From positions 1 through 54,378 of the forward strand of contig CAZPJY010000008.1 of NCBI GenBank assembly GCA_964587045.1: a stretch of 54,378 nt of DNA, given 5' to 3'. Position 1 is the stretch's first letter. Every line of letters starts with the position of its first letter. The position numbers are program-made. Shown piece after piece: positions 39,001-42,000 of the stretch. This DNA is from an uncultured Methanosarcinales archaeon. GTDB lineage: Archaea; Nanobdellota; Nanobdellia; Woesearchaeales; CAZPJY01.

Positions 39001-42000
39001 GTAGAGATGCCGCAGATATAGCTATTTTTTTCTCTTTTTTGTAATTTACTACAGCGAGCTTGTTTGCCGGAAACTCTGTAGTCAGCTCTTCTCCTTATTC
39101 CCTAACAGCTCCTGGATATGGAACAGTGCGGCCAATGATATGAACCGGATGTTCCTCAACCTGTACTCCGTTTTAGGTAGGAGCGAATGGTGCTGGAATA
39201 AGTGGTAGCCCCAGGAGAATAGCAGCCCAGGCACTTCACAAGCCTTGTAGCCGTGACCTTCCTCATGGTCGTTCTTGAGGTCCTTCAAGTCGTCAAAGAG
39301 GTTGGCAGTGATTCCCTGCTCATCGAGGAAGGGTTGGCAGCCGTTGGGATAAGCGGGCACATACTGCTGAGCTAGTGCGGTGGTGAGCCTCGCGGCCCTA
39401 AAGCCCACCTCTTTTGATATATCAAGTTTCCTTGAGTGGGAAGAGTTCGCTCTGGCCAAATCCTCAAGTTCTGACCTGTACAAATATATCTCACCAACAA
39501 CGCCCTCAGCAGCGACCTTCCTTGCGCTGTTTATTATCCTGTCCTTGTCAGGGTTTCTGTCTGAGTAGGGCTTGCCGTCGATGCAAGACTCCATCAGCTG
39601 GCCTAAGAAGTCCTCCCTTTCGGCCCCTGAGATTTGATTCTTGTCGAGGTAGGAATCTATTAATTTTATTCCAGCCCATAGAGTCCCTATGGCGAAGGCT
39701 GCCTGTTGGGAGTACGGCTGGTAGGATTCGGCGTTGAGTCCACAGATTTCCATGTTGATCAGGAAGGCCTGGGCTGGCACATCGAAGTTGGCCCTGTTTG
39801 CGTAAAGTGCCATCTGGCTGGTCATGTATTCCTCATCCTCTCCCAATAGGGTTGCCAGGTTTTTGAGCTTATCTGCGGCGAAGAGGCGAAACTCTACTCC
39901 AAGCTGACGGTAGTAATATACCTTGGGAAACATGGAGGTGTGGATTTTATTCAGGATTGACATATGCACCGAGAGAATCCGGTTATTTAAAAAGGTTCAT
40001 ACATATAATCCTCATTCGAATTCACAATGTTTTTATATCCCTCCACTTTCTTTGTTGTGGACTTTGCGGGGGTAGCCAAGCGGCTAAGGCGATCGGCTGC
40101 AGCAAACTTGTTTGCTGGAACCTCGGTATGATGAGCTTCGGCGATGATTTGTGGATACCGATTATTCGTGGGTTCGAGTCCCACCTCCCGCTCTTTTTTT
40201 CCATAACCCTTAAAAATAGAGCATATTCTGTGCTGTTCAATGGACCTGATAAAGCACCTGACAATCGCGTATTCGATACTAATCATACTGCTGGTCCTCC
40301 TGATAGGAATCTACGTCTTCGCTGACTTTGAGGAAGTGGAGAAACCCACCTCTGTGACTTACTACATAACAGAGCAGGGCCCGCAGACCGTCGTTATGGG
40401 AGAGGAGGCGCAGCCCGCCGTCGACCCTTTCCAGAGGCGCAGGGAAGTACTCGCGATCGAGGCTGAGGAAGAAGAGCTCCAGCGCTGCATCGAGACGCTG
40501 AGCAGCAAGTGGGAACGCAATATCGATGGGCAGTTCTATGAGGGATACAATGAGGAGCTCGACGCTCAGTGGGTCCAGGATCTCCGTATGCGCCTGATGC
40601 TCGGTGAAGACATCTGCTAGGAAAGGAATATAAACCCCGTAGGATTCTCCAACGCTCATGATATCTGAGTTGCTCACGGCATTCTTCTCTATCTTTGTAG
40701 TGATGGACATCTTCGGCAACATCCCTTTGTTTGCGATCCTCCTGGAGAAGTACCCTGAACATGAACGCAGGAAGAGGGGGAACAGGGCAATTCTCTACGC
40801 CACCGGCCTGCTGCTACTATTTCTGTTCCTGGGGAAATATGTCTTGGCTTTTTTCGGTATATCCTTTGAGAGCTTCAAAATAGCAGGAGGTCTCATCCTA
40901 CTAATTATGGGGATTACATACGTCCTCAACCTCAAGCTTCCCCACCAGCATTCCGACTACTACGACGTCGCAGTTTTTCCGATAGCCACACCCCTGATAA
41001 CCGGACCGGGTGTCATCACCACCATCATAATACTCACCCAGCAGCTGGGCTGGATTGCCGTTCTCATCGGCAGCGTGGCGAACCTTCTACTGACCTACAT
41101 AGGGCTCCGCAACGTGAAATGGCTGCTCAAAGTCCTGGGCAGGCAGGGCTGCGATGTCATGACACGGATCTTCGGACTGATCCTGACTGCCATCGCCGTC
41201 GAGTACATCCTTCAGGGCGTGCTGGCATTCTGAACCGCGGAAGCTTTTTATAGCCGAAGCCAATACTAAACCGCCATGCAAAGGGTGCTAGTAGCTGACG
41301 GTGGGAGGTGGTTCTACTGGAACGGCCAAGACCTGCACACACAGTTCGGATTCATCAGGTCCGACGAGATATCAAAGGCCAAGCCTGGCGCTGTGCTGAA
41401 GACCAACACAGGAAAGCAGATGCGCGTGATGGACGCCTCTTTCATCGACCTGTTTAGCAGGCTCAAGAGGATGCCGCAGATCATCCCTAGAAAAGATGTG
41501 GGGATAATAATCGCCGAAACAGGGATAGGCAAAGACAGCGTCGTAATCGACGCTGGCACCGGTTCTGGGGCGCTCGCCTGTAGCCTCGCACACATTGTAA
41601 GGAAGGTGACCAGCTACGAGCTTAGGGAGGACTTTGCAGAAGTCGCCCAAAAGAACAGGGAGAGGCTTGGGCTGAAGAACCTGAATATCAAGATAGGTGA
41701 TGTGTACAAGTCCGTTAGGGAGCGTAACGCCGACCTGGTCGTCCTCGACCTGCCGGAGCCCTGGCTTGCCATACCCCAAGCAGCGAAGGCGCTGAAGGTC
41801 GGGGGTTTCCTGGTCTCATATTCCCCTTCCATACCACAGGTCAGCGATTTCGTCGAAGCGCTGACCGAGGACTTCATCTTCATCAAGACAGTAGAAGTGG
41901 CGGAGAGGGAATGGGAGGTCAACAAGCGGAAGATCCGTCCCAAGAGCCCTGCAATCGGGCATTCAGGTTTCATGACATTCACGAGAAAGATTGGAGGTGA

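Follow-up and report, generated by a model that had tools for sequence, protein, structure and literature searches.

The tRNA-Cys intron and the tRNA introns of the genome

The stretch of DNA analyzed here (the window; 54,378 nucleotides in length) encodes, among other genes, an intron-bearing tRNA-Cys(GCA), an intron-bearing tRNA-Thr(UGU) and a TruD/aPus7-like pseudouridine synthase (Table 1). The borders of the Cys intron were set from its bulge-helix-bulge splice motif, which has a central helix of two Watson-Crick and two G-U pairs and a helix h' of 3 bp. The intron contains a guide-like stretch whose base G40126 (guide position -5) pairs with C39 of the tRNA, followed by two short boxes flanking a hairpin. 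The three degenerate bases at the end of the second box (box C') can pair with the first (box D') or, alternatively, make helix h' of the splice motif.

Table 1. Features of the window discussed in the text
Feature	Position	Strand	Remarks
TruD/aPus7-like pseudouridine synthase gene, 312 aa	2312..3250	+	catalytic motif present; bears on the reading of the tRNA-Tyr intron
tRNA-Thr(UGU), 46-nt intron (9512-9467)	9431..9549	-	ARAGORN with introns
tRNA-Cys(GCA)	40066-40193	+	ARAGORN with introns
tRNA-Cys(GCA) 5' exon	40066..40102	+	anticodon stem 40092-40096, anticodon 40099-40101, G37 = 40102
7-bp hairpin	40100..40117	+	removes C35-A36-G37 and the intron start from the splice motif
tRNA-Cys intron, 54 nt	40103..40156	+	after base 37 (37/38 position); borders from bulge-helix-bulge
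Guide, positions -8 to -2	40123..40129	+	7 Watson-Crick pairs with 40155-40161
Box D' (AUGA)	40131..40134	+	unpaired spacer base G40130 before box
Canonical stem of kink-turn	40135..40142	+	2 G-C pairs, UUCG loop
3-nt bulge (G, A, U) and box C'	40143..40150	+	RUGA at 40144-40147 plus three degenerate bases
Target strand across 3' splice site	40155..40161	+	intron n-1, n, then 38-42
tRNA-Cys 3' exon	40157..40193	+	

The genome as a whole has 41 tRNA genes, 10 of which bear an intron based on ARAGORN with introns, the number given in a preliminary description of this DNA, whose count of GAUGA or UGAUG elements in 8 of the 10 introns was also reproduced. With re-set borders, we found 13 overlapping sites in 477 nt of intron against 1.76 expected (the earlier tally was 12 sites in 457 nt), and no site in the intron-less tRNAs (28 of 31 kept by the parser). 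The chance level reported earlier holds for mononucleotide shuffles, none of 20000 reaching eight introns, but is weaker for dinucleotide shuffles (6/20000) and when any overlapping 5-mer pair may be chosen afterwards (12/1000). The motif alone proves nothing, since a loose version of it has 50 matches in the genome.

The two-box hairpin previously noticed in the Cys, Trp and Leu(CAA) introns was seen again, and the Met intron has it as well, with AGGA as the first box. The earlier reading of these elements as two copies of box C does not hold: a guide precedes the first, which is a box D', and the second (GAUGA) consists of a bulge base (L1) plus the RUGA of box C', which closes a kink-turn. 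In order, the module consists of a guide, a single spacer base, box D', a short hairpin, a 3-nt U-ended bulge and box C', and its sequence has the canonical stem, the 3-nt bulge with projecting U and the tandem G.A/A.G pairs of a kink-turn. The first canonical-stem pair is G-C in 75 of the 79 modules, and pairing between the boxes occurs at D1-C'6 in 54 (permuted mean 33) and at D2-C'5 in 52 (permuted 44). RUGA itself was imposed by the kink-turn finder in these module counts; with columns anchored on the splice site and nothing imposed, its U, G and A were found in 27, 25 and 25 of 29 introns. A hairpin abutting the G.A pairs without a bulge, in which GAUGA would be positions 3-7 of box C, was ruled out, as a shift by three gives the canonical bulge together with box-box covariation. 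The full consensus of box C (RUGAUGA) is retained only in its RUGA part, the three columns after it varying and pairing with D', and the Cys, Met and Leu(CAA) introns hold one C/D set as opposed to the two of a bipartite RNA. No Rfam snoRNA family matched the window at the gathering threshold, as noted before.

Guide register and covariation among relatives

In this genome, the +5 rule assigns C39 to the Cys guide (position 40158, the base predicted to be methylated) and C34 to the Trp, Met and Leu(CAA) guides; each guide lies directly 5' of box D/D' with the target on its fifth base, as expected of C/D RNAs. Using a kink-turn finder blind to the guide, the +5 base fell on position 39 in 24 of the 25 Cys introns having a kink-turn and on position 34 in 42/45 Trp, 13/13 Met and 10/11 Leu(CAA) introns, relatives that are not independent of each other, with random guides giving a chance of about 0.016 per intron. 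Only the exon pattern served to select the Cys set (29 introns). For the Trp, Met and Leu sets, the precursor of this genome itself was the BLAST query, a choice that favors similar introns. The scoring of the finder was altered after a first pass (Trp 12/18, Met 8/13 and Leu 4/11), and kink-turn ranking by stem length alone, which often took the guide's UUGA as box D and allowed targets within the intron, was replaced.

The covariation signal is strongest in Cys. Across 37 related Cys introns, guide positions -2 to -6 are Watson-Crick paired in 182 of 185 cells, compared to 21-66 of 185 in slid registers and to a mean of 129 (maximum 149) when guides are permuted among genomes (0/5000 permutations reached the observed value). 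There are eight target haplotypes at n/38/39, including some relatives with G at base 39, and the intron's own guide matches in 36 of the 37. The guide also follows the last intron base, with four pair types, so that the substrate is the precursor. Guide position -2 likewise tracks base 31 in Met (9 C-G, 4 U-A) and Leu(CAA) (8 U-A, 2 C-G). Judged from sequence, we consider covariation to be established in Cys and constancy of the register in Met, Leu(CAA) and Trp, with many families of a single order represented.

Alternatively, the complementarity might be a by-product, either of the way in which the intron originated (duplication of the anticodon arm) or of the splice motif, with GAUGA being partly due to chance. 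Because bases 28-31 and part of the Cys guide both pair with 39-42, the two are bound to be similar, the splice helix explains the UGAG at the 3' end of the Met and Leu introns, and the motif count is modest after the post-hoc correction given above. However, guide positions -2 to -4, which are no copy of the exon, pair and co-vary with intron bases and base 38, and RUGA is kept with splice-site-only anchoring. This by-product hypothesis is, therefore, very unlikely, and the covariation already contradicts it. Instead, we favor, with considerable confidence, the hypothesis that a half-size box C'/D' guide is encoded in each of the Cys, Trp, elongator Met and Leu(CAA) introns and most likely directs methylation of that intron's own tRNA. 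The preliminary description was right in extending the device beyond tRNA-Trp, but the self-targeting guide is in 4 of the 10 introns and not in eight, and the guides for C34, like that for C39 in Cys, had been missed.

Action in cis, in trans or as a folding switch

According to this model, L7Ae would bind the kink-turn of the intron and Nop5-fibrillarin would then load; the guide would pair with its own unspliced precursor, and the ribose opposite guide position 5 would be 2'-O-methylated, that is, C39 in Cys (G39 in some relatives) and C34 in Trp, Met and Leu(CAA). Refolding and EndA/RtcB splicing would presumably follow, given that the guide fold and the splice fold share the same bases, and hence methylation would precede splicing. 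The genome encodes fibrillarin, a short Nop5 (306 aa, under the NCBIfam cut-off), L7Ae (134.1 bits vs. a cut-off of 134.6, i.e., 0.5 bit under), EndA and RtcB. Co-occurrence of guides with fibrillarin was uninformative, with 105 of 111 genomes being over the cut-off.

Activity in vitro has been shown for half-size C/D RNAs (PMC7229835, PMC9670817), and C34 of Trp, Met and Leu(CAA) is a known or predicted C/D target in other archaea (PMC7994747). The guide-target duplexes found here are mostly 5-8 bp long, and not about 10 bp (9-10 bp in 3 of 36 Cys introns); 8-bp substrates are modified less well in vitro, and solved complexes have a 10-bp duplex (PMC9670817). Half RNAs with C'/D' alone have been argued to be unlikely to assemble in cells (PMC7229835), and the degenerate second half of box C' counts against the guide reading.

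It is also possible that the same guides work in trans, a second precursor being methylated by the intron after its excision, in linear or circular form, or by a different precursor. Trans action was observed in vitro for Haloferax pre-tRNA-Trp and is the favored mechanism of that known case (PMC2584109, PMC7994747), the Met intron RNA of Nanoarchaeum is stable and abundant (coverage 31500; PMC3491384), the RtcB gene is present, and action in cis would require a tight loop of the C34 guides, given the few bases between them and their target. Nonetheless, duplexes of 5-8 bp are short for recognition in trans, in both position-39 classes 7 nt separate the end of the stem from the 3' splice site (Cys 32/36, Trp 14/16), and in one relative (L360) part of the guide is exon, the 5' exon supplying three of the seven guide pairs. 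Measured from the RUGA end, the 3' splice site is 9 nt away in 32/36 Cys introns and at scattered distances (4-80 nt) in the C34 classes. In view of the fixed tether, the shortness of the duplexes and the guide reaching into the exon, we regard action in cis as the probable mode, with some reservation, and action in trans as a credible but less probable one.

Another hypothesis is a structural switch only, in which the L7Ae-bound kink-turn and the self-pairing block or time splicing and no methyl group is transferred. Consistent with a switch, the Cys guide and splice folds are mutually exclusive and differ little in energy (-21.6 vs. -21.0 kcal/mol, without kink-turn terms), and concealment of the 5' splice site by a hairpin is recurrent among long Cys introns: 8 of the 12 introns with a long 5' part, and none of the 25 with a short one, have a hairpin that starts at C35 and is 4 bp or longer. 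Further, the Thr, Leu(UAG) and Pro(GGG) introns have kink-like elements with neither a guide nor comparative support. Switching alone, however, would leave unexplained why position 5 is fixed on 34 or 39, the two methylation sites of the known Trp guide, in four tRNA classes, and we therefore consider it improbable compared to guided methylation.

Among the closest known systems is the euryarchaeal pre-tRNA-Trp guide (Haloferax volcanii; Pyrococcus sR50), which also lies within an intron, is directed at positions 34 and 39 of its own precursor, pairs across the splice junction and obeys the +5 rule. In contrast to it, the usual unit here is one kink-turn with one guide, is found in four tRNA classes and in introns down to 30 nt, and has a box C' of RUGA plus three bases co-varying with D'; in addition, the order in Haloarcula sebkhae is guide39-D'-C'-guide34-D, whereas guide34 comes first in the two-guide Trp introns studied here and guide39, on a plain stem, second. 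The elongator tRNA-Met intron RNA of Nanoarchaeum equitans looks alike by eye (short guide-like stretch, CUGA, G-C hairpin, GAUGA; PMC3491384 supplement), but that paper gives its target as 'no prediction', treats it as a single case, and is without a Cys, Leu(CAA) or position-39 version and without covariation (PMC3491384). Free sRNAs for C34 of tRNA-Leu(CAA), Leu(UAA) and Met in Pyrococcus and Haloferax share target base and chemistry but are separate genes (PMC7994747, PMC2584109), while the Met guide, described as 'always exonic' in PMC2584109, is here inside the intron. Reviews regard the tRNA-Trp intron as unique among archaeal introns in guiding a modification on the tRNA it belongs to, and find no clear answer as to why tRNA introns persist (PMC4090602, PMC11408192, PMC2584109). 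Methylation of its own tRNA by an intron has thus far been demonstrated only for archaeal tRNA-Trp; here, it most likely extends to four tRNAs, including Cys.

The second Trp guide and the tRNA-Tyr intron

The Trp stretch whose fifth pair falls on position 39, as described earlier, is present, and such a second guide was found in 16 of 46 Trp introns. The UUGA before the target, previously called box-D-like, is Watson-Crick paired, and GA occupies the box position in just 6 of the 16. Rather, this second guide (for C39) sits on a plain stem, the first two pairs of which are formed in 14/16 (0, 1, 5 and 8 in slid controls), the second pair in four types; the stem has 5-8 bp in nine introns and 2-3 bp in five, is absent in two, and is followed by a tail beginning with G in 11/16. 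This arrangement may correspond to the engineered C/D-free guide BMG1, which has a Watson-Crick stem of at least 4 bp that starts 5 bases from the target partner and an unpaired G on its 3' side, a design that can replace the C/D motif for archaeal Nop5; the engineered halfmers MMG4/5 are active with L7Ae and consist of one kink-turn plus a 5' guide (PMC7229835, PMC9670817). In these RNAs the duplex measures 10 bp and the stem 4 bp or more, whereas the Trp stems are often shorter. The stem-anchored design is known only from engineered RNAs, and its natural occurrence has been named an open question (PMC9670817).

The Tyr intron (C3:22771-22819) has a kink-turn but no free guide before D', and a different pairing is conserved. 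We lean slightly toward reading it as a one-sided H/ACA-like guide for its own U35: a helix of 5-8 bp capped by the kink-turn would be followed by a strand pairing with its own bases 29/31-34, such that U35 would be held at the helix foot for Cbf5-Nop10-L7Ae. A kink-turn-like hairpin on a short helix occurs in 29/30 Tyr introns, and CAGC, UAGC or CAGU after the helix, which pairs up to the base before the target U, in 27/29 (by script). Of the 23 introns in which this strand also forms part of the splice helix, 22 have a pyrimidine that is mismatched to U33 in that helix but pairs with G30; where the strand is uncoupled, A is restored in 5/6. [quoted passage not shown] On the other hand, the Tyr introns have no conserved ACA, nor a lower stem or ACA box 14-16 nt from the target (the atypical H/ACA guides likewise lack the box; PMC11077068), the helix base is 6-8 nt from GA vs. 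5-6 bp in the papers, compensatory changes cannot be seen because bases 31-34 are invariant, and the TruD/aPus7 protein encoded in the window, which has the catalytic motif, could make Psi35 alone. The atypical H/ACA RNAs of Sulfolobus islandicus and Pyrobaculum and the free pre-tRNA-Tyr U35 guide share the kink-turn on a short helix, the 3' guide, the dispensable ACA and the U35 target (PMC11077068, PMC2651775), but they are separate RNAs, while here the Tyr intron itself would be the fold, with the target covalently attached.

No methylation guide passed in the Tyr, Thr, Leu(UAG), Pro(GGG), Glu and Ile introns of this genome. The Thr(UGU) intron shows by eye a kink-turn of opposite orientation and no guide, and its pattern matched in 3/101 genomes, one match not being a tRNA and one being without the motif; no conservation of this feature was seen. 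For relatives of the tRNA at C3:21063, one pattern found only this genome (1/81) and another one unrelated match (2/71), although both may be too strict. Introns of other isotypes from relatives had a kink-turn in 1/21, that one without a target; the 80-nt flanks of this genome's tRNAs contained no guide, and no further uncalled tRNAs were found.

It is tempting to speculate, and we offer this only tentatively, that the conserved tRNA introns of these small archaea may be cis-acting guides of three kinds, namely half-size kink-turn guides for 2'-O-methylation (Cys 39; Trp, Met and Leu 34), natural kink-turn-free, stem-anchored Nop5 guides (the second Trp guide, base 39) and one-sided pseudouridylation guides (Tyr U35), each blocking its own splice motif until modified. 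The introns described here provide natural half-size guides of 30-55 nt and a candidate natural stem-anchored guide, testable with existing reconstituted enzymes and short transcripts.

Examples of the minimal guide were also seen in other groups of small archaea.

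Registers of probable guides in the tRNA introns

In the 1.6-Mb genome, of which the window is contig C8, ARAGORN with introns called 41 tRNA genes, ten of them with introns that are all compatible with a position after base 37, in more or less relaxed bulge-helix-bulge motifs. Judged by their loops, these are Cys, Trp, elongator Met, Leu(CAA), Leu(UAG), Tyr, Thr(UGU), Glu(UUC), Ile(UAU) and a Pro(GGG)-like tRNA; no Ala(UGC), Pro(UGG), Gln(CUG) or Arg(CCG) tRNA is among the called genes. The preliminary description had reported GAUGA or UGAUG elements in eight of the ten introns, and our recount agrees (13 sites vs. 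1.76 expected), as it does on the Glu and Ile introns, in neither of which the element was found. This count is not the strong evidence for guides; eight introns with the motif were reached in 6 of 20,000 dinucleotide shuffles, and in 12 of 1,000 when the word pair was picked post hoc.

We report a finder that locates kink-turns while blind to the bases 5' of box D' and then identifies the exon base opposite guide position 5, the predicted 2'-O-methylation site. Its first version, which ranked by stem length and permitted intron targets, gave target 39 in 23 of 26 Cys introns and target 34 alone in just 12 of 18 Trp, 8 of 13 Met and 4 of 11 Leu introns; the scoring was revised after these results (two pairs required, long loops penalised, exon targets only), and the target counts below are from the revised version. 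In this genome four of the ten introns pass, Leu(CAA), Met and Trp with target 34 and Cys with target 39, the chance of a random guide passing at 34 or 39 being ~0.016. Cys introns chosen by exon pattern only (matches in 35 of 201 genomes; 30 loci fetched, 29 after removal of one non-intron) had a kink-turn in 25 cases, 24 of them with target 39, and enlarging the set with BLAST loci gave a kink-turn in 37 of 44 and target 39 in 35. The BLAST-locus tally is the only one to include ten genomes flagged unpublished, except that two of these, with no match, also count in the exon-pattern tally. The remaining sets were collected by BLAST searches with the precursors of this genome and are thus biased toward similar introns: Trp (46 distinct introns from 67 loci, 20 being unparsed and one intron-less) had a kink-turn in 45 and pairing at 34 in 42, Met (14 introns, parsed out of 28 loci and the gene of this genome) a kink-turn in 13, all with target 34, and Leu(CAA) (12 introns parsed from 30 loci, some being other Leu genes) a kink-turn in 11, with target 34 in 10.

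Two relatives' genes showed variations. A Leu(UAA) intron (locus L075, G056:C1) has an anticodon-complementary stretch before its kink-turn, one base off the +5 register for U34, and a tRNA-Cys (L012, G001:C44) apparently has an extra D-arm insertion besides its guide intron.

Coordinates of the features discussed (G000, genome under study; L040 and L043, fetched loci)
Feature	Location	Strand	Basis or remark
tRNA-Cys intron	window 40103-40156		bulge-helix-bulge fit after base 37
Hairpin in tRNA-Cys precursor	window 40100-40117		pairs C35-G37 and intron start with intron CUG
Short TruD/aPus7, 312 aa	window 2312-3250	+	adjoins tRNA-Arg(CCU)
ORFs, presumably topoisomerase VI subunits B and A	window 33341-36083	+	resemblance by motifs
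Run of N	window about 44680-44780 (near 44.7 kb)		
tRNA reading as Pro(GGG)	G000:C3:21063-21185 (L040:201-323)		48-nt intron; C replaces near-invariant U at position 33
tRNA-Ile	G000:C3:234-339 (L043)		UAU anticodon; 31-nt intron; Ile(CAU) gene absent from calls
tRNA-Lys(UUU)	G000:C3:23095-23167		3' end after T-loop fails to close acceptor stem, resembles adjoining tRNA-Asp end; probably assembly fault

Module anatomy and covariation with the target

In the Cys, Trp, Met and Leu(CAA) introns the guide is followed by a single spacer base, which is G in 61 of 79 modules, and by a four-base box D' with GA at its end; next come a hairpin, a three-base bulge whose last base is U, then GA, and finally three bases that re-pair with box D'. 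The first base of box D' pairs with the sixth of box C' in 54 of the 79 modules (permuted mean 33), and the second with the fifth in 52 (permuted mean 44), neither being reached in 5,000 permutations. When 29 Cys introns were aligned on the 3' splice site alone, U (27), G (25) and A (25) stood out at positions -12 to -10, with mixed bases downstream. As judged from sequence, the module is a kink-turn whose box C' reads as RUGA plus a degenerate end. The GAUGA elements, previously taken as box-C-like, are read as box D' with the guide upstream of it (the first) and as one bulge base plus the RUGA part of box C' (the second). A reading of the second GAUGA as box C positions 3-7 without a bulge was rejected on the covariation between D' and C' and on the conserved UGA at -12 to -10.

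The guide itself covaries with its target. Of the 185 cells that guide positions -2 to -6 make up in 37 Cys modules, 182 hold Watson-Crick pairs, vs. 21-66 in slid registers; permuting guides among genomes gave a mean of 129 and a maximum of 149 (0 of 5,000 reaching the observed value), a figure that is too strong since related genomes are not independent, the eight distinct target haplotypes being the safer count. Position -5 pairs with base 39 as G-C (25) or C-G (12), position -4 with base 38 as U-A (25) or G-C (12), and position -3 with the last intron base in four pair types. That the Cys guide tracks an intron base points to the unspliced precursor as the substrate. Guide position -2 tracks base 31 in Met and Leu(CAA). 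The feature is real and very likely operates in the manner of the box C/D guide of the Trp intron. The earlier proposal of a guide device beyond tRNA-Trp is borne out for Cys, Met and Leu(CAA), by finder and covariation, and not for most introns.

Proposed action and known systems

The genome encodes adjoining fibrillarin and Nop5 genes, L7Ae, a single EndA, RtcB, a TrmJ-family enzyme, Cbf5, Nop10 and TruD. Nop5 is short (306 aa) and under the NCBIfam cut-off; fibrillarin is above its cut-off in 105 of 111 genomes of the order, so its co-occurrence is uninformative. By analogy with the box C/D mechanism (PMC9670817), L7Ae would bind the kink-turn, Nop5-fibrillarin would load next, and the ribose of the base opposite guide position 5 would be methylated; half-size RNAs that have a single kink-turn show activity in vitro (PMC7229835, PMC9670817). 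The three bases 3' of RUGA are used either by the kink-turn or by the splice-motif helix h', and the guide overlies a splice site; hence, the guide and splice folds are mutually exclusive, which suggests that methylation would come first and splicing afterwards. For Cys, the two folds lie ≤0.6 kcal/mol apart with kink-turn terms left out. A hairpin at the start of the window's Cys intron (table) would mask the 5' splice site; among 12 long Cys introns, eight have such a hairpin, with differing stems.

The guides may act in cis, or in trans on another precursor molecule. The known Trp guide acts in trans in vitro, and the splice motif by itself already limits how close RUGA can lie to the 3' splice site. 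On the other side, the duplexes are short (mostly 5-8 bp), the spacing between RUGA and that splice site is nearly constant in Cys (9 nt in 32 of 36 introns, vs. 4-80 nt in the classes targeting base 34), and in one fetched locus (L360) the 5' exon supplies three of seven guide pairs; for these reasons we lean, with modest confidence, toward action in cis.

In 16 of 46 Trp introns, a second guide places its fifth base on 39 and covaries at -2 and -3. The stretch for position 39 described previously stands as to its register and not as to its box-D-like element: no more than 6 of the 16 have GA where the box would lie, and there it is Watson-Crick paired, which rules out a box D. Instead, a stem starts exactly at this position (first two pairs in 14 of 16, vs. 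0, 1, 5 and 8 with the partner slid), its second pair occurring in four pair types. The stem measures 5-8 bp in nine introns, 2-3 bp in five and is absent in two; its end lies 7 nt from the splice site, a tether equal to that of Cys, and the tail begins with G in 11 of 16. This resembles the engineered BMG1, where a plain stem and an unpaired G replace one C/D motif and L7Ae is not required (PMC9670817, which leaves natural occurrence open), the weak point being the short or missing Trp stems. In the Haloarcula sebkhae Trp intron (guide39-D'-stem-C'-guide34-D) the guide order is the reverse of that here.

Compared with the archaeal box C/D guide family, the modules are without the bipartite form, the full box C and the family duplex length. 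The Trp intron is called unique in PMC4090602, PMC11408192 and PMC2584109, the last also placing the Met guide always outside the intron. In PMC3491384, the Met intron RNA of Nanoarchaeum is described as stable and as having a single box D and a single box C; by eye, its supplement row has a layout equal to our module, with 'no prediction' as target. A literature search, with most subscription papers outside its coverage, returned no report of Cys, Leu(CAA) or Tyr intron guides, nor of the lineage.

Other introns and reach in other genomes

The device had also been thought to extend to Leu(UAG), Thr, Tyr and a further tRNA, introns in which no methylation guide passes. A Tyr intron pattern matched in 65 of 101 genomes (a few hits being non-tRNA), and 29 of 30 fetched introns have a kink-turn-like hairpin atop a helix (5-8 bp in 28), with no free guide before D'. 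The strand after the helix pairs from base 34 back to 31-29 in 27 of 29, leaving U35 at the helix foot; where it doubles as splice helix, a pyrimidine that disrupts this helix yet pairs with G30 is retained in 22 of 23, and where it is separate the A is restored in 5 of 6. We narrowly favor reading the Tyr intron as a one-sided H/ACA-type guide for U35 (compare PMC11077068, PMC2651775 and PMC7991803), held at this level because ACA is absent and no covariation is visible among the 30 introns, and because the TruD product encoded in the window could by itself account for Psi35. That TruD retains the catalytic aspartate motif, the next residue pair being K-D vs. K-R or R-H in PMC2651775. By eye, the Thr intron has a kink-turn in reverse orientation. 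Leu(UAG) may contain a kink-loop, and in Pro a 7-bp helix carries a kink-turn; for these three, few relatives or none turned up. The Pro(GGG)-like kink-turn, using exon bases too, could point at A38.

Outside the order, 2 of 19 same-class genomes match the Cys pattern, with the guide in both. Scanning named genomes with a pattern that includes the guide for base 34, and so is not a guide test, gave at least 118 stretches. Among the 80 matches listed, clean parsing as a Met or Leu(CAA) gene with an intron succeeds for 39 and the layout can be made out by eye in 13 others, bacterial ones are without intron or non-tRNA, and records with the module are mostly titled Woesearchaeota or Nanoarchaeota; hairpin and RUGA, both outside the scan pattern, are visible by eye in Aenigmatarchaeota-, Undinarchaeota- and Micrarchaeota-titled records. 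Ten fetched loci (L137, L168, L170, L174, L176, L179, L196, L200, L205, L251) come from records that bear the title 'uncultured Methanosarcinales archaeon'; their tRNAs and intron modules resemble those found in this order, and the titles may be wrong.
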